Of a stretch of 32,000 bases of DNA, positions 1,239 through 23,760 are shown piece after piece. A program made the translations under genes and the position numbers. The notes under the pieces were generated by a model. It did not search any database. It saw only the letters and a list, made by a program, of their open reading frames with translations, and had not been told where the DNA came from. The stretch's first letter is position 1, and every line of letters starts with the position of its first letter. This DNA comes from an uncultured Mycoplasmatota bacterium (GTDB lineage: Bacteria; Bacillota_I; Bacilli_A; RF39; UBA660), in the NCBI GenBank assembly GCA_948466395.1, contig CAOKAG010000004.1, positions 9,078 through 41,077 of the forward strand, in the 5' to 3' direction.

Positions 1239-2363
1239 TTAAATAATTTTTTGCTTTCTTTTACTAATCACATTATTAATGACAACAAATAACAAGATAA
1301 AACAAATAAGAAGACTCACATTTATTAAAATTGGTTTCATATGACTAAAATCAATGACTTCTAAACTTTTAATAAGTTCATTATTCTTAATATAGTAATA
1401 AGAAGGAAGAATCTGACTAAATTTTACAACACTTTCTGGTAAAAAGTCCATGGGTACAAATGCTCCACATAAAAAACTACTTCCCAATGCAATCACATTG
1501 ACAATGCCATTAATAGCTTCTTTATTACGCACTAAAGTAGACAATAAAACCGCTAGTGACAAAGAAAGAATCATGAAAATAAAACTATTTAAAACATAAA
1601 GAAGTCCATACATGGTAAACATAATCTCGCCAACTAATAGAACACTTAATAATAAATACACGCCCCATAAAAAGACAGCAAATAAACCATTAGAAAGCAA
1701 TAAAAGTCGATTAAATTTCTTATAATTCATACTTGAAACTAATGTTCTCTTATTAATTTTTTCCGTTTTAAAACTACTAATAATTAAGCAAATAACAAAA
1801 ACACAACCCGCTAGAAACGTATAATTCGCCATATTATAAAAACTGGCCGCATTATTTAAACCCTTTGTATCCAATTTAGTTAAAACGTCAATTGATACGT
1901 CACTATCCAAAGAAATATGTATTTTTTCTATGATTTCTTCATTGGATAAAGGATATTCTTTATAAATTGTATAAAGATTTAAGTAGCGTTCCAAATACAT
2001 CTTAGCTAAACTTGCTTCATAATTTCCATTCGATTTTACAAAAACAAGCCCCTCTTCTTTCTCGAATGAAGCTGGAATACGAATAAAATAATGAATATCC
2101 CTATAAAATAAAGCATCATCGACCTTCTTTTCATCTAAAGAAACAAACGTACATCGTTCTTTCAAGTACTGTTCTAAATCTTGACTCAATAAACCCTTAT
2201 CGTCATTAATAATAAAGACTTTTGGCTTCGTAGCTTCAAAATTAAACGTTTGGCTTTCGGTTTTAAAATTAAACGTTCCAAAAAAAACTAAAATAAAAAC
2301 ATAAAGAAAAACCACCATCCTATTTTTCTTTAAAATACTTAAAAATGCTTTAAATACTGTCAT
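1239..2363 (-). CDS. ABC-2 family transporter permease
   Basis: N-terminal TM helix, a large extracytoplasmic loop, then about 5 C-terminal TM helices. Last gene of an ATPase-permease-permease operon. I prefer the ATG at 2363 (GAGGTG RBS 6 nt upstream) over the tracked GTG at 2372. Confidence 0.75.
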   Translation of the reverse strand: MTVFKAFLSILKKNRMVVFLYVFILVFFGTFNFKTESQTFNFEATKPKVFIINDDKGLLSQDLEQYLKERCTFVSLDEKKVDDALFYRDIHYFIRIPASFEKEEGLVFVKSNGNYEASLAKMYLERYLNLYTIYKEYPLSNEEIIEKIHISLDSDVSIDVLTKLDTKGLNNAASFYNMANYTFLAGCVFVICLIISSFKTEKINKRTLVSSMNYKKFNRLLLLSNGLFAVFLWGVYLLLSVLLVGEIMFTMYGLLYVLNSFIFMILSLSLAVLLSTLVRNKEAINGIVNVIALGSSFLCGAFVPMDFLPESVVKFSQILPSYYYIKNNELIKSLEVIDFSHMKPILINVSLLICFILLFVVINNVISKRKQKII

Positions 2364-3510
2364 ATTTCTCACCTCTTAAAATAACAATAGAAATTAAAAA
2401 CAACACCAAAGAAAAAAGGATTAAACTGATTAAATTCATAAAAAAGCGTTCTGGAGTATCATAATAATAAAGAGCATAAAAACCATCTGTAATCATATTA
2501 GCAGGATTTAGTTTATTAAGAATAGGAACGTTTTTATCAATCACGTATTTCATTGTAATTCCCATCATACCTGATAAAACGGAACAAAACATGGTACCAG
2601 CAATAATAATACCAATTTTAGTATTTTCATTTTTCTTTAAAAGAACTGAAATAAACACCCCAAAAGCAAGACCCGCAAGACTTCCAAAAAGAATTAAAAG
2701 CAACACATAGAAAATAGAATCGCCATAATCGACATGTAAAACAACTACCGTAAACAAAAACAGTAAAAGAACACCTATAAGCAATGCAACATAACTCGCA
2801 AGAGCACTACTTCCAATCAATTTCAATTTTTGTATGGGCGCAACACTCACTCTTTTTCCATTAGCACTCATATTGGCAAGTTTCTGATTAATCGCATACA
2901 TACCTAAAATGCCCCCATACAAACACGCCATAGCAATTAAAGTATAATACTCAATCATTGTATAACTTAAATGAGTTTTAGAATCATCTTGAATAGAGCT
3001 TTCCTGATTTGTCATTACTTTTTCATAAATTTGAGCAATAAAAGACGCATCATTTCTAATCGAATCTTGATTCATTTCAATAAGATGATTAAAAAGGGTC
3101 TTTTTTTCTTCAATTTCTTCAATTACGAATTTAAAAGTTGTTTCATCAATACCATTCTCAGAAATAACTAATTTCGCTTCCTTTTCTAAATTTAAATAGC
3201 CAACAATTTCCTTTTTTTTAGTCAAAGACCGACACGTTTCTTCATCTTCATAACGGATAGAAAAAAGTTGCGTTTTACTTCCCTCTTCTCCTAAAACTTG
3301 AAACGTTTCTTTATATAACGTATTTTCTAGAAAAACTTGATTTTCAACAATACCAATAGGAATCACTTTAAAAGTTTCCCCTTTTTCAATATCACTAAAT
3401 GCAAAATAAAACAAAAGACCTAAAATAATTGGAAAAGCGTACGTCCAAAAAATTAAAATCTTATTTTTAAAAAGGGTTTTTAAAGTATAATTAAAATTAT
3501 GAAAAAACAT
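2350..3510 (-). CDS. ABC-2 family transporter permease
   Basis: Same topology as the downstream paralogue. Its ATG overlaps the TGA stop of the ATPase gene (TGATG), which implies translational coupling. The tracked TTG at 3513 is one codon upstream. Confidence 0.75.
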   Translation of the reverse strand: MFFHNFNYTLKTLFKNKILIFWTYAFPIILGLLFYFAFSDIEKGETFKVIPIGIVENQVFLENTLYKETFQVLGEEGSKTQLFSIRYEDEETCRSLTKKKEIVGYLNLEKEAKLVISENGIDETTFKFVIEEIEEKKTLFNHLIEMNQDSIRNDASFIAQIYEKVMTNQESSIQDDSKTHLSYTMIEYYTLIAMACLYGGILGMYAINQKLANMSANGKRVSVAPIQKLKLIGSSALASYVALLIGVLLLFLFTVVVLHVDYGDSIFYVLLLILFGSLAGLAFGVFISVLLKKNENTKIGIIIAGTMFCSVLSGMMGITMKYVIDKNVPILNKLNPANMITDGFYALYYYDTPERFFMNLISLILFSLVLFLISIVILRGEKYDSI

Positions 3511-4448
3511 CAATCTCGTAACTCCTTTCCTGTTAGTTCTAAGAACACATCATTTAAAGTAGGACGTTCCGAATAAATCTTTTCATATTTTAATTTATGT
3601 TCATTTAAATACTCTAAGATTGTCATTAAATTATTCTTTCCTTTTAGAAAAGAAACCACAAGAAGTTTATCATCATACCGACAATCTAAAACATTATTAA
3701 GTGCTTCTATTTCTTTTAAGTTTTTTTCTTTTAACGCATCCATCTCTACACTGATTTTTTCTTCTATACGAGCCAGTTTCTTTAACTCATCAGTGGTGCC
3801 ACTAGCTAAAACTTTCCCTTTATCTAAAATGATAATACGATCACATAAAATTTCAACTTCTTCCATATAATGTGTCGTATAAATAATGGTAGCCCCTTCT
3901 TTTCTAAGCGTCTTAATCCCTTCTAATATACGATTTCGACTCTGTGGATCAACCGCAACCGTCGGCTCATCTAAAAAGATAATCTTAGGCTGATGAGCAA
4001 CACCACAAGCAATATTTAACCTTCTAAGAAGCCCTCCTGACAATTGTTTTGGATAATACTTTTTATACGCTTCTAACCCTACTAATTCTAAAGCCTTTTC
4101 AATACAAGTTTTTCTCTTTTCCTTATCAGTAATATAAAGCCCACAAAAATAATCAATGTTTTCATAAACCGTTAACTCTTCAAAAACCGCAACATCTTGA
4201 AAGACAACCCCAATTTCTCTTTTGACTTCATACAAATCAGGACGCATCTCTTTTCCCAAAATCGTAATATGACCTGTATGAAATTTTAAAAGAGATAAAA
4301 TACAATTAATCGTCGTGGTTTTTCCACTTCCATTAGGGCCTAATAAACCTAATATCTCTCCCTCCCGCACTTCTATCGATAAATCATCCACCGCTTTAAC
4401 GCCTTTGTAATCTTTTGTTAAATTTTTTACTTCTATACAATTTGCCAT
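3510..4448 (-). CDS. ABC transporter ATP-binding protein (ABC-2 / DrrA-like, with a C-terminal extension)
   Basis: Walker A GPNGSGKTT, Q-loop, signature LSGGLLRR, Walker B IIFLDEPT, H-loop TTHYMEE. GGAGAAAAA RBS before the ATG. Confidence 0.9.
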   Translation of the reverse strand: MANCIEVKNLTKDYKGVKAVDDLSIEVREGEILGLLGPNGSGKTTTINCILSLLKFHTGHITILGKEMRPDLYEVKREIGVVFQDVAVFEELTVYENIDYFCGLYITDKEKRKTCIEKALELVGLEAYKKYYPKQLSGGLLRRLNIACGVAHQPKIIFLDEPTVAVDPQSRNRILEGIKTLRKEGATIIYTTHYMEEVEILCDRIIILDKGKVLASGTTDELKKLARIEEKISVEMDALKEKNLKEIEALNNVLDCRYDDKLLVVSFLKGKNNLMTILEYLNEHKLKYEKIYSERPTLNDVFLELTGKELRD

Positions 4449-4560: not shown

Positions 4561-5640
4561 TTATTTTCTATTTATCAAATCAATAACCACATATTCTGCA
4601 ACCGCTCCAGTCTTAAATTGAATTGTCCAATTTCCAATCCCTGAACTGACTAGAAAAGTCGTATTTTTTCTTTTTTGAAGCCCATAAGACTGATCGTCGA
4701 TATTAAACAGTTTAGAAATATACTTTATAGGCAACAATTGTCCACCATGCGTGTGTCCCGATAAAACTAAATCCATTCCCGCCTCAGATTCTTGTTTATA
4801 ATCATTAGGTTCATGGTCAAGAACAAGACTATATTTTTGTTCATCCAAATCTTGAGTCAATTCTTGTGCACTCATTCGACTCTTAGTTTGGGCGTCTTGT
4901 CTTCCAATCAACGTCAAATTCTCTAATAAATCAATGGATTGATCCTCGAGTATAACCACATGATTTTTAATCAGTTCAAGTCTTAAATCACTTTCATTAT
5001 ACCCTCGATACTTAAAATAACCTTTATCATGATTCCCAAAAACAAAATAGACTCCATACTTTGTTTTTAATTGACCCAATCCAGAACACGCTTTAATCAT
5101 GTCTTCTTTACTGGTATCATCATCTACATAATCTCCCGTAATCACAACAATATCAGGAGAAGTTTTATTAATTCTTTCCATATAAGAAATAAAACGATTC
5201 CCATCCATTGTAGAACCAATATGACTATCTGTAATTTGAACAATTCTAAAACGATCCACTCCAATATCTTTTGTTGTTTCTATCACATAATGCGTCTCAA
5301 CTACGTGATGCGCTAAATAATAACCATAAGAAAGATAAAGAAACGTAACGATAAAAGCTAAGACTAAACGAGCAAAAGAACCGAAACGTTTTTTAAACAC
5401 TTTTTTAATAATAAAACCCAATAAATCAAAAAGAAGTAAAAAAACAAAAAAATGCAAAAGTACAATCAGTCCATTAATAAAATTTTTAAAAAAGAAAATA
5501 AGGAATGCCACAATAGGAGTAAAAGGAATGCTCCACGAAAGAAAGGAATTTTTCATATTTAGTTTTTGAACAAGACGATAAATTCTTTTAAATAAAAAAA
5601 ACAAGAGAATGAAAACAAACAAAATCAAAACAACCTTCAA
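4561..5640 (-). CDS. Membrane-anchored calcineurin-like metallophosphoesterase
   Basis: About 4 N-terminal TM helices, then motifs DSHIG, GDYVDD, GNHD, GHTHGGQ. TTG start with a GGAGGTG RBS 5 nt upstream. Confidence 0.85.
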   Translation of the reverse strand: MKVVLILFVFILLFFLFKRIYRLVQKLNMKNSFLSWSIPFTPIVAFLIFFFKNFINGLIVLLHFFVFLLLFDLLGFIIKKVFKKRFGSFARLVLAFIVTFLYLSYGYYLAHHVVETHYVIETTKDIGVDRFRIVQITDSHIGSTMDGNRFISYMERINKTSPDIVVITGDYVDDDTSKEDMIKACSGLGQLKTKYGVYFVFGNHDKGYFKYRGYNESDLRLELIKNHVVILEDQSIDLLENLTLIGRQDAQTKSRMSAQELTQDLDEQKYSLVLDHEPNDYKQESEAGMDLVLSGHTHGGQLLPIKYISKLFNIDDQSYGLQKRKNTTFLVSSGIGNWTIQFKTGAVAEYVVIDLINRK

Positions 5641-8849: not shown

Positions 8850-9989
8850 TTATTTAAATAAAATAAAGATTAAAAACAAAGCATAAATAACAGTTACAAT
8901 CCAACCATTTAGTTGATCTTTTTGAGACGATTTACCTTTAATGCCTATGGCCATAGTAATGAAATACCCACCAATAAGTCCCCCAATATGAGCTGCATTA
9001 TCAATTCCAGAAAAAGTAAAGCCAAAAAATAAATTCAGTAAAATAACGGGAATAATTTGTGTTCTCATGGTATTACCTAAATAAACACGAAAATGATATC
9101 CAAAATAAAGTAAACTACCCAGTAATCCAAAAATAGCACCACTTGCCCCAACAGACAAAGAAGTCTGACAAACACAAGACATCAAGCTCCCTGTTACAGC
9201 ACTGACTAAATAAACACCTAAATACTTTGCTCGTCCTAAAAAAGTCTCCAATTGAGTTCCGATGACATATAAAGAATACATATTAACAAGCAGATGAATT
9301 AATCCGCCATGTAAAAAAGTACCTGTTATCAATCGCCAAAATTCACCATTTTTAATAGCAAAAGAAGAAACCGCCCCTAAATCATAAAGTGTCTTTCCAT
9401 CCATGGCTCCATGACTAAAAATATAAGAAAGCATAAATAAAACAGTACTCAATGCCATCAAAATAGGCGTTACAATAATTTTCTTAGGACGAAAAGTCGA
9501 CTCATAAATTTTATTATTTTTTTGAGTTTTAGCGTTAATTCCTTCTGTAACATTTAAAATTAGATCAATCCCTTGAGTATCTTTTAACAATTTATTTTCA
9601 ATATTTGGAAAAAATTTTGTTATTTTCTTAGTTTCTTTATCACTAACATCTTTTAAAAAGATGGATTTAATGTATTTATCATCAGATAACTTTACTTCAT
9701 CATTCACATCTAAAAAAATATTAAGAGTGGTCATTGAAAACGATAAAGTTTTCTTTTTAATTTGATGCACCACATTTCTAATCTTATAAAGATCGGTAAT
9801 AAATTGTTCATTATTATAAATATAATTAGAATTAATACGAACAATCTTATATTTCGCTTCACTATTTTCAAGCCATACCTCATCTTTTACACCATTAACA
9901 ATGATGGGGGTATAATTCTCTTCTGTTATAAAATAATGCACCAATCGCATAACGATTTCATCTTTTTTAGTAATTGTAATTGTATTCAT
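8850..9989 (-). CDS. gluP: Rhomboid intramembrane serine protease, GluP/YqgP-like, with an N-terminal cytosolic domain and no TPR tail
   Basis: Catalytic motifs GASGAIFGLLG and HIGGLIGG, plus WRLITGTFLHGG. The N-terminal DEVWLENSEAKYKIVRIN resembles the YqgP N-domain. The start is set at the ATG at 9989 (AAGGAGG RBS), not the tracked 10055. Confidence 0.85.
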   Translation of the reverse strand: MNTITITKKDEIVMRLVHYFITEENYTPIIVNGVKDEVWLENSEAKYKIVRINSNYIYNNEQFITDLYKIRNVVHQIKKKTLSFSMTTLNIFLDVNDEVKLSDDKYIKSIFLKDVSDKETKKITKFFPNIENKLLKDTQGIDLILNVTEGINAKTQKNNKIYESTFRPKKIIVTPILMALSTVLFMLSYIFSHGAMDGKTLYDLGAVSSFAIKNGEFWRLITGTFLHGGLIHLLVNMYSLYVIGTQLETFLGRAKYLGVYLVSAVTGSLMSCVCQTSLSVGASGAIFGLLGSLLYFGYHFRVYLGNTMRTQIIPVILLNLFFGFTFSGIDNAAHIGGLIGGYFITMAIGIKGKSSQKDQLNGWIVTVIYALFLIFILFK

Positions 9990-16388: not shown

Positions 16389-17024
16389 ATGCTAGATCAT
16401 GGGCAAAAAAAAATAAAAGATTTACAATTAGAAGTCATGTCAAACTGTGTCAATATAAAAAAAAAGAATTTTAAAAAAGGCGAATACATTTTAAGCTTTG
16501 GACTCAGACAAAAAGTCATCGGCTTTATTCTATCAGGAAAAGCAGACATCATTCGAATTACAATTGATGGAGAAGCTTCAATTATTCAAAAATTAACCCC
16601 AGGCTCAATTTTTAATGATGCCTTTTCTTGTTTTTCCCAAGATAGCGTTTTTGTCATCAGTAAAACCGATACTGAAATCTTTTTCATTGATTACCCCATT
16701 ATTTTTAAAAATTGTCCAGTTAAATGTCCCTATCACTATCATCTAATAGAGCATTTACTAAACTTAATCACCGAAAACAATATAAAAGCCAATGAAAAAA
16801 TTGAGATTCTAACTCATAATAAAATTCGTGATCGAATTCTTGCCTACATTTCAATAACTATTGGAACTTCAAACGCCACTTCAATAACCCTTCCCTATTC
16901 TTTTACAGAATTAGCTGAATATTTATGTGTGGATCGAAGTAGTTTAATGCGTGAACTAAAAAAAATGGAAGAAGAAAAGATAATTAAAAGAGAAAATAAA
17001 ACCCTTACTTTATTAAACGCTTAA
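16389..17024 (+). CDS. Crp/Fnr family transcriptional regulator
   Basis: N-terminal cNMP-binding-like beta-barrel (GEYILSFG...GKADIIRITIDGE). C-terminal HTH FTELAEYLCVDRSSLMRELKKMEEEKII. I prefer the ATG at 16389 over the tracked TTG at 16371. Confidence 0.85.
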   Translation: MLDHGQKKIKDLQLEVMSNCVNIKKKNFKKGEYILSFGLRQKVIGFILSGKADIIRITIDGEASIIQKLTPGSIFNDAFSCFSQDSVFVISKTDTEIFFIDYPIIFKNCPVKCPYHYHLIEHLLNLITENNIKANEKIEILTHNKIRDRILAYISITIGTSNATSITLPYSFTELAEYLCVDRSSLMRELKKMEEEKIIKRENKTLTLLNA

Positions 17025-17799
17025 CATTGCTTATAGCATTTTTTTCAATTCGAGACACTTGAGCTTGACTAATGTGTAGAGCTTCTGCAATTTCCATTTG
17101 TGTTTTCCCAATAATAAAACGTTCCATTAAAACATTTCTTTCTCGTTCTTTAATCTTATTTAAAGCTCTTCTTAATGAAATCAACATATCCTTATCTTGA
17201 TTCGAATCTTTCTTATCAGCAATTTGATCCATCAAATAAATCGTATCTCCCCCATCATTATAAATGGGTTCAAAAATACTTTTCGGTTCTTTTAACGAAT
17301 CTAAGGCATAATTAATTTGATATTCCGAAATAGACAACGTTTTAGCAATCTCTTCATTCGTAGGATAATTCCCATGATTTTTTAAATACTCCTCTTTAAA
17401 CTTCAAAATTTGATACGCCAAATCTTTTATGCTTCGACTTACCCGTATAGATGTATTGTCTCGAATGTATCTTTTAATCTCTCCAATAATAAGAGGTACG
17501 GCATAAGTCGATAACTTTAAATTGTAAGACAAATCAAAATTATCAATAGCTTTTATAAGCCCTATCACTCCAATTTGAAACAAATCATCTAAATTATGTT
17601 TATCTTTATTAAATCGTTTTAATATACTTAAAACTAATTTTAGATTTGCTTCAATTAATTTATCTTTAGCTTTTAAATCCCCACTTTGATACTGTTTAAA
17701 TAATTCATTCATTTCACTTTGCTTTAAAACAATAATTTCACTTGTGTTAATACCAGTAATATCTACGCTCTTTTTATTCAAAATATACAGTCCTTTCAC
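17005..17799 (-). CDS. sigG: Sporulation sigma factor SigG (sigma-70 group 3)
   Basis: Close by-eye match to B. subtilis SigG: DLFQIGVIGLIKAIDNFD, STYAVPLIIGEIKRYIRDN, FEPIYNDGGDTIYLMDQIAD, GKTQMEIAEALHISQAQVSRIEKNAI. The start is either the tracked GTG at 17799 or the TTG at 17781, which gives MNKKSVDITGINTSE with AAAGGA 9 nt upstream. Confidence 0.85.
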   Translation of the reverse strand: MKGLYILNKKSVDITGINTSEIIVLKQSEMNELFKQYQSGDLKAKDKLIEANLKLVLSILKRFNKDKHNLDDLFQIGVIGLIKAIDNFDLSYNLKLSTYAVPLIIGEIKRYIRDNTSIRVSRSIKDLAYQILKFKEEYLKNHGNYPTNEEIAKTLSISEYQINYALDSLKEPKSIFEPIYNDGGDTIYLMDQIADKKDSNQDKDMLISLRRALNKIKERERNVLMERFIIGKTQMEIAEALHISQAQVSRIEKNAISNVKRLIK

Positions 17800-17878: not shown

Positions 17879-18829
17879 ATGGAAAAAGTAAAAAGAAAAA
17901 AAGGATTTATTCTCTTAAATGATTTAAATAAAAATCCAAATTTTAAAATCATTCCTTGGAAAAATAATGAATTAATGAAAAAGGAATACGGTCACTCGAA
18001 CATCAAATACATTTTCTATTATGAAGGAGATCTCTATTTTTATAAAGCTTTAAAACTAGATCAATGCTATTATGAATTATTAGCAGAAGAGCTGGCAAAA
18101 GATTTTAATTTACCAACCGCTCATTATGATTTAGCTTACAGTAAAACTTATAAATCTGGTGTTTTAACAAAAAATTTCAAACAACCAAATTATACCTATT
18201 ATAAAGGCTACGCTATTTTAGAGGATTATTTAAGAAATTGTATTCATAAGAAGGATGAGAACTGCTCCATTTATGAGCTAGAAGAAGAAATGGAATCCTT
18301 TAATAGTTTAGAAGGAATTTGGGCCGTTTTTGAATACCGCTATCGAAACCGGTTAAATAAAGTAGAAATCGTTAATAAGCTTACGAATCAACTTGTCGAC
18401 ATCTTTATCTTTGATTTATTAATTGGGCAAACCGACCGTCATGAAGAAAATTGGGGAATAATGGAACGAGAGGAAGAAGTTTTCTTGCAACCAATATTTG
18501 ATAACGATGCCCTTTTAGAAAAGGATTTTATATTAACCCCTCATAGGAATACAGAAGTAGATTATTCACTTAAATTTGACGAAAGTTTAGAAAAAATAGT
18601 CACCGAGTTTATTACCGTTTCTGCTCCCGAATACATTGAAAAAATAAAAAATAAACTACCCTTAATTTCCGAAGATAATATTATAAAAATACTAAAAAAA
18701 ATAGAAACAAGAACGTTTTCTCCTCTACCTTTAAATATAAAGGAAAAAATTCTTACAAATTTTAAAACGATTAGAAAAATTATAAATACGTCTCTTATTA
18801 ATTATGAAGAAAATAAAAAAACAAGATAA
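17879..18829 (+). CDS. HipA_C-like (PI3/4-kinase-fold) protein kinase domain protein, short form
   Basis: Catalytic-loop-like LLIGQTDRHEENWGIM (compare the HipA GNTDDHxxN motif), followed by the Mg-binding-like PIFDNDALL. At 316 aa it lacks a HipA-type N-terminal domain. Confidence 0.6.
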   Translation: MEKVKRKKGFILLNDLNKNPNFKIIPWKNNELMKKEYGHSNIKYIFYYEGDLYFYKALKLDQCYYELLAEELAKDFNLPTAHYDLAYSKTYKSGVLTKNFKQPNYTYYKGYAILEDYLRNCIHKKDENCSIYELEEEMESFNSLEGIWAVFEYRYRNRLNKVEIVNKLTNQLVDIFIFDLLIGQTDRHEENWGIMEREEEVFLQPIFDNDALLEKDFILTPHRNTEVDYSLKFDESLEKIVTEFITVSAPEYIEKIKNKLPLISEDNIIKILKKIETRTFSPLPLNIKEKILTNFKTIRKIINTSLINYEENKKTR

Positions 18830-18855
18830 TTCCGCTCTTGTTTAAAATAAATAAC

Positions 18856-18888
18856 AAAAAAAGTTTACTTTAAAAATAAACTTTTTTA
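18856..18888. terminator. Bidirectional rho-independent terminator between convergent genes
   Basis: Stem AAAAAGTTTA / TAAACTTTTT with a 9-nt loop. It overlaps the TAA of the permease gene. Confidence 0.6.
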
Positions 18889-20202
18889 TTTGGTTTTCAA
18901 AGACTTAAAGATTTTCTTCCATAAATCTTGACTTGAATAATTTAAAATCCCTACTTTATAAATACGCAATCCAAAATGGAATAAAAGATACGTTACCGTT
19001 CCACAAATAACTGTAGAAAGAATAAGCTCTAATAAACTAATTTGACCGAGTAAAAAAATAACTGGAGCAATCAAAAATGAAAGCATGGGAACATAAGCCA
19101 TAATTTTCACAAATAAAGCACCATCAAAAGCAGAGGCCATAATGGCAATGTAATACCCCACAAGCAATACAATCATTAAAGGGGTTTGAAGTTGTTGATA
19201 ATCTTCAATATTTGTTGTCATAGAAGCCAAAACACCCGCAAGAATGGCGTAAGCAAGAAAACTAAACAAAAATAACAGAATAATAAAAGGTAGCCCTTGA
19301 ATAAGTAAATCTAAAACACCTGTATTTTTAACCGTTTCTAATGTTTCACTTATATAACTTGTAACATCAGCATTGGCGGACAAAATCGATGATCCTAATA
19401 ATTTTCGTACTAAAAATGCAAGAAGCACATCAAAAAATAAAACGAAAGCTTGCACTAAAACAAAAAGCGTTGATGAAATAATCTTTGAAGAAAAATGGAC
19501 TTTAGGAGAAACATTTGAAATAATAATTTCCATGCTTCGAGTTGACTTTTCATCGTTAATCTCTGCACCAATCATTTGAGTTAACATAGTAATAAGCAAA
19601 AAGAAAGGAACAATCAAAACGACAATCAACCCCGAAGAAACAATATCTTTTCCTTCGGCATTGGAATCTAATTCAGGATTAGTAACACTTTTATTGATAG
19701 AAACATTACTAGTAAGTGCTGTTATTTCCTGTTCACTCATCCCACTATTTTGTAACACATAAGAAGATTTTACATGATTCAAACTATTTTGAAATAACTG
19801 CTCAGTTAAAGTATCAATGGGATCAAAACTAATTACTTCCGCCACTAAATATTCCAAATCAGAAGGAACAATTTTTAAAATAATATCCTCTTTTTCTTTT
19901 ATTTCTTCTTTTAACTCCTCTACCGACTTAGTGGTTGAAACGAGTTCATAATGACCTAAATCCTTTAATGACTCTGCCAAGCCATTAAAATTCGCTTCGA
20001 ATATCGGATACGTATTCATCTCATCCATCACATAAACTTTAGTAACGTTTTGAAAGTCTCCTCCAAAAAAACTAATAATTCGATCAACATTAATGACTCC
20101 GATTAATAAAATCAAAATTAAAACATTAGCCACTTTAAACCATTTCGTATCAATTTTCTTTTTTAAACTTTGTTTAATCAAAAACTTTAATTTAGTTTTC
20201 AT
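18886..20202 (-). CDS. ABC-2 family permease, NatB-like
   Basis: TM1, then a large extracytoplasmic loop of about 170 aa, then about 5 TM helices. The ATG at 20202 has an AGGTGA RBS and overlaps the ATPase 3' end. Confidence 0.75.
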   Translation of the reverse strand: MKTKLKFLIKQSLKKKIDTKWFKVANVLILILLIGVINVDRIISFFGGDFQNVTKVYVMDEMNTYPIFEANFNGLAESLKDLGHYELVSTTKSVEELKEEIKEKEDIILKIVPSDLEYLVAEVISFDPIDTLTEQLFQNSLNHVKSSYVLQNSGMSEQEITALTSNVSINKSVTNPELDSNAEGKDIVSSGLIVVLIVPFFLLITMLTQMIGAEINDEKSTRSMEIIISNVSPKVHFSSKIISSTLFVLVQAFVLFFDVLLAFLVRKLLGSSILSANADVTSYISETLETVKNTGVLDLLIQGLPFIILLFLFSFLAYAILAGVLASMTTNIEDYQQLQTPLMIVLLVGYYIAIMASAFDGALFVKIMAYVPMLSFLIAPVIFLLGQISLLELILSTVICGTVTYLLFHFGLRIYKVGILNYSSQDLWKKIFKSLKTK

Positions 20203-21094
20203 ACGATTCACCTACTTTTTCTAAGAAAATTTCATTGAGTGTTGCATCCTCAACCGCAAATTTAGTGACATTTTTACACTTTTTAACATAATCAAAAACC
20301 TCTTGAATATTTTCATCACTTTCAATTTTGATAACCCATTCATTTTCATTTTGAACCACATCCAAAACCCCTTTAATTTTTTTCAAATCCTCTACTTCTT
20401 TAAAATCACAAACCACATGAATATTCTTTTTTCGATAATCTTTTTTTATTTGTTTTAATTCTCCAGATAAGACACTTTTTCCTTTTACCAAAACCACTAA
20501 CTTTTCACAAAACATTTCAACATGTTCCATACGATGAGAAGAAAAGATAATACTGGTTTTTTGTTTTTTTAATTTTCGAATAACATCCATAAACATCTGA
20601 ACATTAATAGGATCCAACCCTGAAAAAGGTTCATCCAAAATTAAAAGCTTAGGTTCATTAATAATCGCTGTAATAAACTGTACTTTTTGTTGATTTCCTT
20701 TCGACAATTCTTTAAGTTTACGTTCTTTGTAATCCGATATTTGAAAATACGCCAACCATTCATCTAATTTTTTTAGAATGGTTTCTTCTTTCATTCCTTT
20801 TAAAATACCATAATAAAGCACTTGTTCCTTAACCGTCAATTTGGTAAGCAAACTTCTTTCTTCGGTTAAAAAACCTAAACGATCCGTCATGGTATAATCT
20901 ATGGGTTTGCCATCCATCGTAATTGATCCACTACTTAATTCAAGAAGCCCATTAATCATCCGAAACGTCGTCGTTTTACCAGCACCATTAACACCAAGAA
21001 GACCGAAAATTTCTCCTTCATCTACCGTAAACGATAAATCATCCACCGCTTTATTTTTTCCATAATATTTTGTTACATGATCTACTTTTAGCAT
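20192..21094 (-). CDS. ABC transporter ATP-binding protein, NatA-like
   Basis: Walker A GVNGAGKTT, signature LSKGNQQK, Walker B LLILDEPFSGLD, H-loop SSHRMEH. The start is ATG 21094 or the tracked GTG 21106. Confidence 0.9.
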   Translation of the reverse strand: MLKVDHVTKYYGKNKAVDDLSFTVDEGEIFGLLGVNGAGKTTTFRMINGLLELSSGSITMDGKPIDYTMTDRLGFLTEERSLLTKLTVKEQVLYYGILKGMKEETILKKLDEWLAYFQISDYKERKLKELSKGNQQKVQFITAIINEPKLLILDEPFSGLDPINVQMFMDVIRKLKKQKTSIIFSSHRMEHVEMFCEKLVVLVKGKSVLSGELKQIKKDYRKKNIHVVCDFKEVEDLKKIKGVLDVVQNENEWVIKIESDENIQEVFDYVKKCKNVTKFAVEDATLNEIFLEKVGESYEN

Positions 21095-21159
21095 TGACCT
21101 ATCCACACTCCTTTTTTAATTATAACATTTATAATAAAGGAAATAAACCTTTCAATTAA

Positions 21160-21189
21160 ATTATACCCCCCCCCATTCTAAATTGTCAA
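21160..21189 (-). promoter_or_regulatory. Consensus sigma-A promoter with a G9 homopolymer in the spacer, upstream of the NatAB-like operon
   Basis: The minus strand reads TTGACA(21189-21184)-atttagaatGGGGGGGGG (18 nt)-TATAAT(21165-21160). The C9/G9 run occupies 21166-21174. Confidence 0.6.
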
Positions 21190-22395
21190 TTTATTTTTAG
21201 ATCTTTTCCTTAACTTTAAAATCAAAAGTAATAGAAGAATCAAAACAACAAGCAAAACCAAACCCATTTTATAATCAGTATAACGATAAGAAATGTTATC
21301 CTTTAAATAAATCTCTTGTGAGTATAGAAGCTGATCATGATAAAAAACATGAACGTTTCCTAAAAAATCATTTACTTTAATAGTTCGATTTAAAACATCT
21401 ACCCCTTCATAACGATAAGTTAAGACTGCTTCTTTATCTAAATAGATAGGAACCGTTTGTTCGACATAAATCGGATACTCTAAAATTTCTCCATCTTGAA
21501 CCGTTAAAGTAGCAACGGGTTCCTCAACTGGAAAAACATTCTGATAAGAGTAATGTTCATTAAAATAATTATAAATTTCTAAAGAATCAACAATATGATT
21601 AGGAAAACCATTTTGATAAGGTGAACGAGCAACAATCAATAAATAATGCACCCCTTGATATTCTGCAATACTTGAAAGACACAATCCAGCCTCTTTTGTA
21701 AAACCTGATTTAGAACCTAAAATATTTTTAACATCTAAAAAATATTTTTCAGAAGGACCGACTAAGGTGCTATAAAGGTCTAAATGATTCGTCGTTTCAT
21801 AATAACGCGTCGTATAAATTTCTTTAAACACCTCATTTTTAAGCGCATACAAAAGTAATTTCTGAACATCTTCTAAAGTAGAATAATGATCAATAGCATC
21901 ACGTCCAACTGGATTACTAAAATGCGTCGCAGTCATACCAATTTCTTCTTTTAAATCATTCATCATTTTCACAAAATGATCTATAGAGCCCGCTGTCAAA
22001 ATCGCCAAAGCTTGGGAAGCTTCAACACCACTTGGTAAAAGCGTTCCATAAAGTAAATCACGAATAGTCACTGTTTCATTTCTTTTAAAACCCGCCATGG
22101 CGTAACCACTTGTATTATAAAAAGCTTCATTAGGAAGTGTGACGCGTTTATCTAAATCCTCATGATTTAAAATGACAACCATTGACGTCATGACCTTAGT
22201 CAAACTAGCAATTGAAATTTGCTCATCACTTCCCTTTTGAATCACGGTCTTGCCCTCATCTAAATTGTAAAGAAGATAATGAGTTGCTTTAAAATTTAAA
22301 TGTTCAAAGTTCAAATACGCATAATCCGTTTCTTTTGCTTCAACTAGAGAAAAAAAGAAAAAGCACAACACAAGAAAAAAGTTTATTCTTTTCAT
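21178..22395 (-). CDS. Serine-type D-Ala-D-Ala carboxypeptidase (S11, PBP5/DacB-like) with signal peptide and C-terminal TM anchor
   Basis: SxxK motif SLTKVMT and KTG-like KSGFT. The SxN position reads SGV. C-terminal hydrophobic LVLLVVLILLLLLIL followed by KLRKRSK. AGAGG RBS. Confidence 0.85.
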   Translation of the reverse strand: MKRINFFLVLCFFFFSLVEAKETDYAYLNFEHLNFKATHYLLYNLDEGKTVIQKGSDEQISIASLTKVMTSMVVILNHEDLDKRVTLPNEAFYNTSGYAMAGFKRNETVTIRDLLYGTLLPSGVEASQALAILTAGSIDHFVKMMNDLKEEIGMTATHFSNPVGRDAIDHYSTLEDVQKLLLYALKNEVFKEIYTTRYYETTNHLDLYSTLVGPSEKYFLDVKNILGSKSGFTKEAGLCLSSIAEYQGVHYLLIVARSPYQNGFPNHIVDSLEIYNYFNEHYSYQNVFPVEEPVATLTVQDGEILEYPIYVEQTVPIYLDKEAVLTYRYEGVDVLNRTIKVNDFLGNVHVFYHDQLLYSQEIYLKDNISYRYTDYKMGLVLLVVLILLLLLILKLRKRSKNKLTI

Positions 22396-22413
22396 AGCCT
22401 AACCTCTAAAAAA

Positions 22414-22443
22414 ATTATAGCATATTTTAAAAAAACAAGTAAA
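22414..22443 (-). promoter_or_regulatory. Putative promoter of the S11 carboxypeptidase gene
   Basis: The minus strand reads TTTACT-N18-TATAAT, with a TGc extended -10. Confidence 0.4.
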
Positions 22444-22465
22444 AAAAAGAAATCCGAAGATTACT
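22441..22465 (-). terminator. Rho-independent terminator of the ytxH-like gene
   Basis: Stem AGTAATC / GATTTCT (one mismatch) with a TTCG tetraloop, followed by T8 on the minus strand. It overlaps the stop codon. Confidence 0.5.
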
Positions 22466-22859
22466 TATTTTCTAATTTTTCAATAGCCTGTTTTGTGACT
22501 TCAATCGCTTTTTCTCTTAAAGCATTCACAGCCTCTTCTAAAATAGGTTCACTTTTATCCTTTACATATCTTGCTAATTTTTTACAATCCGCTTCAATTT
22601 TTTTAGCTTTATTCTTTGCCGCCTTTAAAACCGTTTCTTTATCTAATGCTTTTAAATCGTTCTCTAATTTTTCTATTTTTTCTGAAACATATTTTTTTAC
22701 ATCTTTTACTTTAACGTTTTCCAACTTTTCTTTTAATTCTGCAATTTTATTTTTTAAATCTTGTCTTGTTTCCTTTCCACTTTTTGGAGCGAACAACACT
22801 CCTAATCCAGCACCAATTGCTGTTCCAGCAACTAACGTTGCAATTGTTTTTTTCTTCAT
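22461..22859 (-). CDS. YtxH-like general stress protein
   Basis: The N-terminal GTAIGAGLGVLFAPKSGKETRQDLK is the YtxH signature. The remainder is a K/E-rich coiled coil. Confidence 0.8.
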   Translation of the reverse strand: MKKKTIATLVAGTAIGAGLGVLFAPKSGKETRQDLKNKIAELKEKLENVKVKDVKKYVSEKIEKLENDLKALDKETVLKAAKNKAKKIEADCKKLARYVKDKSEPILEEAVNALREKAIEVTKQAIEKLENK

Positions 22860-22932
22860 ATTTCACCATCCCTATTATAAGTATAGTATTAAAAGGCAAA
22901 AAAAACAAACGAATTTATAAAACAATTGACAT

Positions 22933-23760
22933 TCATTTGTTTAAATCGTAATCATCTAAGAAAGAAACTTTTTGATCATTCACTCGATACCCTAAAATAC
23001 AATTCAAATTAACATTATCTAGACTTTTAAAAATATTATGATCAATATCATCACTTTTTTCTCTTAACAATTGAATGAAAGCCTTAATCTCTTTTCGTTT
23101 ACTATTCTTTTCTAAATCATTTTTTTCTGTAAACGAACAAGCACAATTTAAAAAGGCCAAGCGATTATAACTCACCCAATCTTTAATGGATTTTTCTTTA
23201 ATAAGATACATCGGACGAATAAGTTGTAAGCCTTTAAAATGGTCACTATAAAGTTTAGGCATCATAGTTTTCACTTCGGAGGCATAAAACATAGACATTA
23301 AAGTCGTTTCAATAACATCATCAAAATGATGGCCTAAAGCAATTTTATTGCACCCCAGTTCTTGTGCTTTATTATAGAGATGCCCTCTTCTCATTCTGGC
23401 ACACAAATAACAAGGGCTTTTTGGATTCAATTTGTTCGCCACCTCAAAAACATCGGTATCAAAAAATTCTAAATCAATATTTAATAATTGACTATTCTTT
23501 TTGATTAAATCAATATTTTTTTCACTATAACCCGGATTCATCAAAACAAATTTTAAATCAAAAAATACTTTTCCATGACGTTTCAATTCTTCTAAACACT
23601 TAGCCATTAAAAAAGAATCTTTACCTCCACTGATACAAACCATAATCTTATCGTGATTTTCTATTAATTGATAATCATTAATGGCTTTGACAAAAGGATG
23701 CCAAATTTCTTTTCGGAAACGTTTGATAATGCTTCTTTCAATGTTTTTATAGTCTTCCAT
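22933..23760 (-). CDS. ttcA: tRNA 2-thiocytidine biosynthesis protein TtcA-like PP-loop ATPase
   Basis: PP-loop CISGGKDS. Cys motifs PCYLCARMRRGHLY and LNCACSF. ALGHHFDD. The ATG at 23760 (MEDYKNIERS...) overlaps the upstream CDS by 14 nt; the tracked start at 23859 lies inside that CDS. Confidence 0.8.
   Translation of the reverse strand: MEDYKNIERSIIKRFRKEIWHPFVKAINDYQLIENHDKIMVCISGGKDSFLMAKCLEELKRHGKVFFDLKFVLMNPGYSEKNIDLIKKNSQLLNIDLEFFDTDVFEVANKLNPKSPCYLCARMRRGHLYNKAQELGCNKIALGHHFDDVIETTLMSMFYASEVKTMMPKLYSDHFKGLQLIRPMYLIKEKSIKDWVSYNRLAFLNCACSFTEKNDLEKNSKRKEIKAFIQLLREKSDDIDHNIFKSLDNVNLNCILGYRVNDQKVSFLDDYDLNK

Follow-up and report, generated by a model that had tools for sequence, protein, structure and literature searches.

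A length-variable G tract within a conserved promoter layout upstream of an ABC-2 exporter operon in uncultured gut Bacilli

The stretch of DNA analysed here, hereafter the window, comprises 32,000 nucleotides (nt) of contig CAOKAG010000004.1 from an uncultured Mycoplasmatota bacterium. Upstream of a two-gene operon for an ATP-binding cassette (ABC) exporter of the ABC-2 type, it contains a promoter-like element, P1, in which a homopolymer of nine guanines (G9) occupies half of the spacer between two consensus hexamers. Judged from sequence comparisons, P1 is a conserved sigma-A-type promoter layout rather than a chance sequence, and it is probably an adjustable control point. We favour a reading to which we would give about an even chance: P1 would be a real promoter whose G tract slips, which would shift the distance between the hexamers among 18, 19 and 20 nt and tune the exporter operon above a basal level set by a second, proximal promoter, P2. 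The initial annotation of the window had proposed a phase-variable switch at this place, an interpretation that is partly supported. The promoter layout and the variable tract were confirmed, whereas the conservation of P2 points to modulation and not to an on/off device.

The putative distal promoter P1 and its conservation in relatives

All elements of P1 lie on the minus strand. The -35 hexamer TTGACA (21189-21184) and the -10 hexamer TATAAT (21165-21160) match the consensus exactly and are separated by a spacer of 18 nt. Half of this spacer, atttagaat (21183-21175), is free of long G runs and includes the stop codon TAG of the upstream carboxypeptidase gene (21180-21178); the other half is the G9 homopolymer (21174-21166), which is flush with the -10 hexamer. 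The tract follows the stop codon by 3 nt, and TATAAT ends 65 nt before the ATG of the ABC ATPase gene (21094). Hexamers, spacer, tract, coordinates and both distances had been given in the same way by the initial annotation and stood when the sequence was re-read. An A-rich stretch is located upstream of the -35 box. In a promoter scan of positions 18500-23500, P1 was the sole match in 12 of 12 hexamer positions, and the pattern TTGACA-N15-19-TATAAT occurred only once on either strand of the window, namely at P1.

The G tract is equally exceptional in its surroundings. The window has a G+C content of 29.3%, and base composition predicts about 0.006 G/C runs of at least 9 nt per window. The annotated uniqueness of G9 as a long G/C homopolymer was confirmed, as no other run of at least 7 nt is present; the next longest are one C6 and several runs of 5. 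Three other identities of the element were considered and rejected. An intrinsic terminator of the upstream gene was not detected between 21094 and 21180, where the G run also has no complementary C run. An intramolecular G-quadruplex needs four G runs, and the single G9 has no other G run of at least 5 within kilobases. A -10 box of the SigB type would be accompanied by a GTTTAA-like -35 box at SigB spacing, and none can be read from the sequence.

Relatives were obtained from a scan of one genome per species, which gave 80 loci encoding relatives of the ATPase. All 80 originate from metagenome-assembled genomes (MAGs) of uncultured gut 'Bacilli' or 'Tenericutes' from mouse, rabbit, chicken, human and ruminants. 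The succession of -35 hexamer, 9 nt, G run and TATAAT was kept in 13 species with ATPases 77-94% identical to that of the window. A comparison of orthologous intergenic regions, as had been suggested in the initial annotation, thus found the tract in all 13, with lengths of G9 to G11. The hexamer at the -35 position is TTGACA in eight species and TTGCTT, TTGCTA or TTGCCA in the remaining five. TATAAT is invariant in 12 of the 13, the exception being L006 with G11+ATAATT. The non-G part of the spacer has an invariant length of 9 nt and a freely diverging sequence, and 9 nt plus G10 is the usual geometry. Hexamers, spacing and tract that stay fixed while the intervening 9 nt diverge are the pattern expected of a working promoter under selection.

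A second promoter-like element is situated closer to the operon. In the window, the extended -10-like motif TGTTATAAT (21119-21127, minus strand) can be read as the candidate promoter P2, next to a Shine-Dalgarno-like AAAGGAG (21108-21114, minus strand) at whose equivalent place the relatives have AGGAGG-type sites. In 12 of the 13 species, the P2 motif TGnTATAAT (TGTTACAAT in L003) precedes the ATG by about 20 nt; it is also present in L005 and L014, two relatives without a G tract. L012 has no P2, which leaves P1, at 32 nt from the ATG, as its sole promoter-like element. The region is best read as a pair of putative tandem promoters, with P1 as the distal one containing the G tract and P2 as a proximal extended -10 promoter. 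Because P2 is conserved, and is so even in relatives without the tract, any effect of the tract would be modulation instead of on/off switching.

Additional G runs were observed in this group of genomes. Intergenic runs near the ABC operon were present in L022 (G11 at 2558), L026 (G10 at 5328), L039 (G9 at 5325), L040 (G9 at 5309) and L061 (G9 at 5406), and throughout 495 kb of related loci all G/C runs of at least 8 nt were G runs on the strand of the ABC genes. In the P0030 species (L359-L368), the carboxypeptidase of some strains has 416 instead of 401 amino acids, because an upstream stop codon is missing and the frame continues across the -35 box and the G tract (...LTNTFGGGV*). In these strains the tract length would also change the C-terminal tail of the carboxypeptidase.

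Variation and constraint in tract length

Tract alleles were collected by exact look-ups of ATPase sequences, and 47 independent intact promoters were counted. The tract was G10 in 41 of them, G11 in four and G9 in two, one of the latter being the window; no intact tract was more than one G away from G10. Variation was also present within single species: P0030 had eight G10 and two G11 alleles, and P0042 had five G10, one G11 and one G9. Length variation between strains was the key prediction of the initial annotation, and the differences among G9, G10 and G11 between strains as well as between species agree with it. The annotation had further expected a flip between an optimal spacer of 17 nt and a poor one of 19 nt, and here the data disagree, as 41 of the 47 promoters have G10 and 19 nt and G8, corresponding to 17 nt, was absent from the 47 intact alleles. 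The usual natural state is G10 with a 19-nt spacer. The G9 of the window, with 18 nt, is a rarer allele, predicted by standard spacing rules to be the stronger one.

The closest comparison is with contigs from two independent mouse-gut samples of the same species, both of which have G10. They are 99.7% identical to the window over 8.0 kb and 99.6% over 6.6 kb, the differences amounting to 17 single-nucleotide polymorphisms (SNPs) and two indels. One indel is the change from G10 to G9. The other is a deletion of 7 nt (AAAAAGA) at 21198-21199 of the minus strand, in the A-rich stretch just 5' of the -35 box. Since both indels lie in the promoter and no other homopolymer run differed in length in the conspecific overlap, G9 is regarded as a real allele. 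A homopolymer or assembly error was rejected as its source, there being only two indels in 8 kb, both in the P1 region. The 7-nt deletion also changed the end of the carboxypeptidase, which is KNKLTI* in the window and KKKK* in the conspecifics, and it is the cause of the overlap between the -35 box and this reading frame. The annotated position of the -35 box within the last codons of the carboxypeptidase gene is therefore correct for the window, but peculiar to this strain.

Three further observations concern sequence variation at or near such runs. Ten of the 17 SNPs are located at 21412-22381 in the 1.2-kb carboxypeptidase gene and one in the 2.2-kb ABC operon (18886-21094), an uneven density on either side of the promoter which could reflect a recombination boundary at the tract. 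The short Logan contigs L374, L376 and L377, and likewise L327 and L328, start at the G tract or directly behind it, L377 exactly at TATAAT; these breaks could reflect within-sample length heterogeneity, trimming of poly-G reads or loss of coverage. Finally, a C7 or C8 run in L359, L360, L361 and L363 (near positions 9806/8565/3732) varies in length between samples of one species. On the minus strand it is a G run about 10 nt upstream of a 173-amino-acid gene of the same strand, beside the suf operon.

In the mechanism that we favour, slipped-strand mispairing would add or remove single Gs and set the distance between -35 and -10 hexamers to 18, 19 or 20 nt. The change in spacing would in turn cause a heritable and reversible change of P1 strength. 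P2, beside the ribosome-binding site, would give basal expression, and P1 would most likely act as a volume control on top of it and not as an on/off switch. The insertion of cargo elements into the tract, observed in two related species and described below, would uncouple the -35 from the -10 hexamer and provide a second, coarser way to alter P1. We infer from the comparisons that P1 fires, that tract length alters transcription and that switching is frequent within populations.

Several points weigh against this mechanism. The combination of G10 and a 19-nt spacer is strongly preferred (87%) and G8 with 17 nt is absent, and such a tight modal length is also expected of a fixed, non-switching element under stabilising selection. 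A spacer of 19 nt is poor by the rules derived from E. coli and B. subtilis, so that P1 may be weak in most strains, unless a G-tract spacer has a different optimum. Either most populations are in a low-P1 state, or the optimum is shifted; on our own reasoning, poly(dG)-poly(dC) may tend to an A-like helix with a shorter rise. Most of the expression may come from the conserved P2. Because of common ancestry among samples of one species, the allele counts are not fully independent in a phylogenetic sense. The tract lengths were taken from consensus assemblies, in which heterogeneity within a population, the hallmark of phase variation, does not show. The signal-peptide rule applied to the wider promoter class in the following section is a heuristic.

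G-tract promoters in metagenomes and cargo elements in the tract

The layout of P1 extends beyond the relatives of the ABC operon. A metagenome scan for the pattern TTGACA-N7-11-G7-N0-6-TATAAT gave at least 122 matches at at least 120 loci. As the scan required the motif, it can reveal recurrence, positional preference and polymorphism, and it gives no genome-wide frequency. The source contigs of the matches listed have G+C contents of 26-70%, and many are labelled human gut. The view of the initial annotation that such a switch would be unusual in a Firmicute was thus not upheld. Within the same set of listed matches, to which the following figures on this class also refer, the G run was flush with TATAAT in 91 of 122 cases, though a gap of 0-6 nt was allowed. 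The commonest gap between TTGACA and the tract was 9 nt (45 of 122), the modal tract length G9-10 and the modal spacer 18-19 nt. Loci that were sampled repeatedly differed in tract length (G7/8/9/10; G9/11; G9/9/9/10; G10-13; G11/12/15; G10/10/12), with an overall range between samples of G7 to G15.

The genes downstream of these promoters form a biased set. By a crude hydrophobicity rule, a signal-peptide-like start was assigned to the first downstream gene in 31 of 44 distinct cases, compared with 62 of 288 among the remaining open reading frames (ORFs) of these contigs (odds ratio 8.7, p=3e-10). A lipobox was found in 12 of the 44 first downstream genes and in 11 of the 288 background ORFs. 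Sampled products were a SpaA-domain adhesin, a beta-helix/Listeria-Bacteroides-repeat protein and a CAP-domain protein with an LPSTG motif, and the spacers of matches preceding signal-peptide-bearing genes were again mostly 18-19 nt long. By these sequence criteria, the class has the profile of contingency loci. The present ABC operon was not encoded next to any of the listed matches when its proteins were compared with them by tblastn. In the literature on poly-G promoter spacers in Firmicutes and gut metagenomes, and on the raw motif, no paper was found that describes such a class for gut Firmicutes.

Two related groups of G-tract promoters (L106, L115, L137, L152 and L193; L121, L147, L156 and L195) share a conserved hairpin leader (...acaggccgacgaccggaactggacagcctgcctgt...). 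These leaders precede small lipoprotein genes (MKMAKKFLAVALAGVLALSVLTGC...), and both the gap between TTGACA and the tract and the tract length vary between samples. A scan of viral contigs for G9-TATAAT, which served to test the placement of the -35 hexamer, found TTGACA at 7-10 nt in about 7 of 100 matches and was uninformative, being swamped by an unrelated phage gene family. The phage contigs L204, L210, L214, L219-L221, L223, L231, L233, L234, L240, L241, L248 and L260, mostly from one IMG/VR sample set, form a family. It has G9-10, TATAAT and then a conserved ..ccttgttyggaggrctctgtcATGcttaag.., with unrelated sequences upstream of the G run, and is another case of similarity that starts at a G run.

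Among the relatives, a group of contigs with identical ATPases was identical rightwards from the G run and unrelated leftwards, and longer flanks revealed inserted elements. Three such elements with different cargo were identified in two species (P0033 and P0042), all located exactly within the G tract of P1, where they split the -35 from the -10 hexamer. In P0033, the empty site (L343) reads ttgacaaacacattc-G10-tataat, and the occupied site (L339:1455-5118, 3664 nt) reads ttgacaaacacattc-G7-cGAATGGAGCTTATACCCAAA ... TTTGGGTATAAGCTCCATTCta-G10-tataat. In P0042, the same tract is occupied by a MatE element (L351:8179-9930, 1752 nt) or by an element with YhcG and NUDIX genes (L353:6971-8842, 1872 nt), both with the same kind of termini. 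The cargo of the 3664-nt element consists of genes for an MBL-fold (Apyc1-like) protein, a CoaD-like protein and a LysR regulator, together with coaE and a 95-amino-acid ORF. The elements are bounded by terminal inverted repeats of about 20 nt and are present or absent between near-identical chromosomes: between occupied and empty sites, flank identity is 99.4-99.9% in the pairs L339/L343 and L351/L350, and about 96% in L353/L352. In the three contigs in which both junctions could be read, the left-hand G run was G6-7 and the right-hand one G7-10. Other occupied contigs had right-hand runs of G6-G10, and empty sites had G10. These flanking runs would be explained equally well by duplication of a 6-7-bp target within G10 and by the crossover core of a site-specific recombinase.

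All three elements have a noncoding left-end block of 265 nt in common, which reaches 90% identity between species, against 78% for their flanking genes, and holds hairpins kept by compensatory changes. It gave no match in Rfam and contains no conserved ORF; we know of no counterpart to this structured block. No transposase or recombinase domain of Pfam was found among the genes called in the three elements. An nhmmer search of 2.76 Mb of collected sequence recovered the seed copies only, the exact-pattern scan of viral contigs gave 0 matches, and blastn against plasmids and phages returned one spurious match of 39 nt and nothing else. Likewise, nothing specific was found in the literature on elements that target poly-G. 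The elements resemble mobile insertion cassettes (MICs), which are non-autonomous, passenger-carrying elements bounded by inverted repeats of the insertion sequence (IS) type: the inserts in the relatives likewise end in inverted repeats, are flanked by direct repeats and carry passenger genes without a transposase gene of their own. They differ from MICs in that no matching autonomous IS or transposase was found for them, and in a flanking repeat that consists of Gs only, because the target is itself a homopolymer.

Where an element had split the promoter, the tract beside TATAAT was G10 in 8 of 13 cases and G7 or G6 in 3 of 13. A deviation of at least two Gs thus occurred in 3 of 13 split promoters and in none of the 47 intact ones (p=0.008). 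This relaxation after separation of the -35 from the -10 hexamer is indirect evidence that selection acts on tract length only within an intact P1.

The same relaxation would be expected if G10 were a fixed sequence- or structure-specific element of P1 under stabilising selection, with G9 and G11 as mildly deleterious slippage mutants. In that case the run might serve as a rigid GC-rich segment of the spacer, provide a -14/-13 G contact or bind a regulator. This explanation, in our estimate possible but unlikely, accommodates the 41 G10 alleles among 47, none of them off by more than one G, and the invariant 9+10 geometry amid diverging neighbouring bases; the run lying flush with TATAAT in 91 of the 122 metagenome matches listed likewise suggests that the position of the run matters as well as its length. 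Yet a non-repetitive spacer would do as well without the mutational cost, and a run of 10 Gs which has long been kept at 29% G+C suggests that being repetitive is of use in itself. The tract length of other class members varies widely between samples (G7-G15), the class is enriched before exported and surface proteins, on which phase variation usually acts, and no candidate regulator that binds G tracts was identified.

The insertions themselves raise the question of whether the tract is kept mainly as a docking site, attB-like or a preferred target, for the non-autonomous cargo elements, with the promoter context being secondary. Three elements with different cargo that sit exactly within the tract of two species with G runs on both sides, the near-identical occupied and empty flanks, a left-end block more conserved than the flanks and its compensated hairpins are all in line with such a role. 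We nevertheless consider it quite improbable as the main reason for the tract. Neither the terminal-repeat motif (with up to 3 mismatches) nor the left-end block is present in the window, whose site is unoccupied, and no elements were seen at P1 in the other 11 species with the tract, which keep G10 anyway. The elements lack a detected transposase or recombinase, and three insertions in two species could represent a single hot spot. A docking function would also leave unexplained the perfect, conserved hexamers at a fixed distance and the enrichment of the class before exported proteins. A second candidate docking site, the paired G10 motifs of the more distant relative L059 (864-873 and 5980-5989), was ruled out. 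These motifs belong to a gene duplication of about 1 kb with 90% identity, in which G10 lies within a short upstream ORF (MSKVNKKFTKTLILLGGG...) before each copy of a membrane-protein gene, the complete copy having 592 amino acids. They represent a different, frameshift-type use of G tracts in the same lineage.

That P1 is an artefact or a product of chance, i.e. a sequencing or assembly error, a fortuitous consensus match or another element such as a terminator, a G-quadruplex or a SigB-type -10 box, is extremely improbable: AT-rich DNA does yield many partial promoter matches (27 observed in the region and 24 expected), two-colour Illumina chemistry is known to produce poly-G artefacts and some Logan contigs (L374, L376, L377) break at the tract, but this explanation is refuted by the conservation of the same structure in dozens of assemblies obtained independently by various projects, with various assemblers and from various hosts, and P1 is at once the sole 12/12 match and the sole long G/C run of a window in which no other homopolymer differs from the conspecifics.

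A broader proposition can be put forward tentatively, and it is more probably wrong than right. The arrangement of -35 hexamer, 9 nt, G(n) and TATAAT could define a widespread, hitherto undescribed class of contingency promoters of gut Firmicutes, mainly for surface and exported proteins, and in at least one clade the tract could at the same time be a dedicated dock for a new cassette family that lacks a transposase. If so, one short sequence would offer fine control by slippage of single Gs, coarse control when the promoter is split and rejoined, and a place for accessory genes to land.

Gene context, related systems and significance

The operon downstream of P1 consists of the gene for the ABC transporter ATPase (20192-21094, minus strand; 300 amino acids; Pfam ABC_tran and DrrA1-3_C) and that for an ABC-2 permease (18886-20202, minus strand; 438 amino acids; Pfam ABC2_membrane_3), which overlap by 11 nt. 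Proteins identical to the ATPase are encoded on mouse-gut contigs, and an identical permease is on record. The exporter had initially been called NatAB-like. Its domain architecture fits, as the NatAB sodium exporter of B. subtilis is likewise encoded by a two-gene operon for a DrrA-type ABC ATPase and an ABC-2 permease. However, neither protein of the window reaches an equivalog or subfamily cut-off of NCBIfam: the nearest models of the ATPase are of the DrrA type (188.7 bits, cut-off 312) and none passes, and the permease has no NCBIfam match. Orthology to NatAB is not demonstrable. The label thus holds at the level of domains only, and NatAB is an unsuitable name for this exporter.

The gene upstream of P1 encodes a D-Ala-D-Ala carboxypeptidase (21178-22395, minus strand; Peptidase_S11, Pfam PF00768). 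In an exact look-up, the 405-amino-acid carboxypeptidase of the window was not on record, because its tail differs in this strain. A second exporter of the ABC-2 type (1239-4448), with a DrrA-type ATPase and two ABC2_membrane_3 permeases, has no G tract upstream. At 17005-17799 and 17879-18829, a lone gene for a SigG-like sporulation sigma factor stands beside a divergent gene for a HipA-like kinase. The SigG-like gene shows that the lineage is spore-forming, though several related MAGs are labelled 'Tenericutes'. Other genes, among them those for an anaerobic ribonucleotide reductase and signal peptidase II, indicate an ordinary chromosome, and no genes of mobile elements were found in the window.

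The nearest known counterpart of P1 is the promoter of porA in Neisseria meningitidis, where a G tract is likewise part of the promoter spacer; opc and fetA, with poly-C, are similar cases. The tract of porA also abuts TATAAT. The poly-G of porA is situated between -35 and -10, and the gain or loss of one G alters their spacing and the transcript level (PMC3899988). P1 shares with such phase-variable promoters a tract between -35 and -10 and a tract length that differs between close strains. The product of porA is an envelope protein. Unlike porA, P1 belongs to a Gram-positive, spore-forming gut lineage and precedes an ABC-2 exporter instead of a porin; a modal 19-nt spacer is held across 13 species, a second, proximal promoter motif is present, and an effect of the tract on expression is predicted by analogy. 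The tract of P1 would accordingly be of the porA kind, in a lineage and a gene class where such promoter spacers had not been noted before.

Phase variation by repeats in the promoter spacer is also established for hifA/B, the fim genes of Bordetella and vlp of M. hyorhinis (PMC3899988). The poly-A of vlp and the TA repeats of H. influenzae hifA/hifB resemble the tract of P1 in that a simple repeat changes the length of the spacer; vlp is part of a small AT-rich genome, and the hif promoter lies between two genes (PMC3899988). Unlike P1 with its Gs, these systems use A or TA repeats, and they are on/off switches of a single promoter for surface lipoproteins or fimbriae, whereas P1 is one of two putative tandem promoters of an exporter operon. 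Another parallel is Campylobacter jejuni, whose genome of about 30% G+C contains runs of G8-G13 that are hypermutable between and within strains. Most of these runs are located within coding sequences and act by frameshift. The poly-G contingency tracts of C. jejuni are thus like the tract of P1 in being G runs of an AT-rich genome, and unlike it in their position, which in P1 is the promoter spacer.

Knowledge of phase variation by simple repeats comes almost wholly from a few pathogens, namely Neisseria, Haemophilus, Campylobacter, Helicobacter and the mycoplasmas. The locus described here and the metagenome class suggest that the device is also employed by uncultured gut Firmicutes, mostly before genes for exported and surface proteins. 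The modal spacer of 19 nt raises the question of how the sigma-A holoenzyme handles a spacer that contains a G tract. Should the cargo elements turn out to insert specifically into G-tract promoters, they would add a new case of mobile DNA aimed at a regulatory motif, with the promoter being rewired upon insertion and excision. Differences of a single base in homopolymer length, which are treated as assembly noise, could carry regulatory information. This would have a bearing on strain-level heterogeneity, on the escape from phage and immune recognition and on the reading of homopolymer 'errors' in MAGs.

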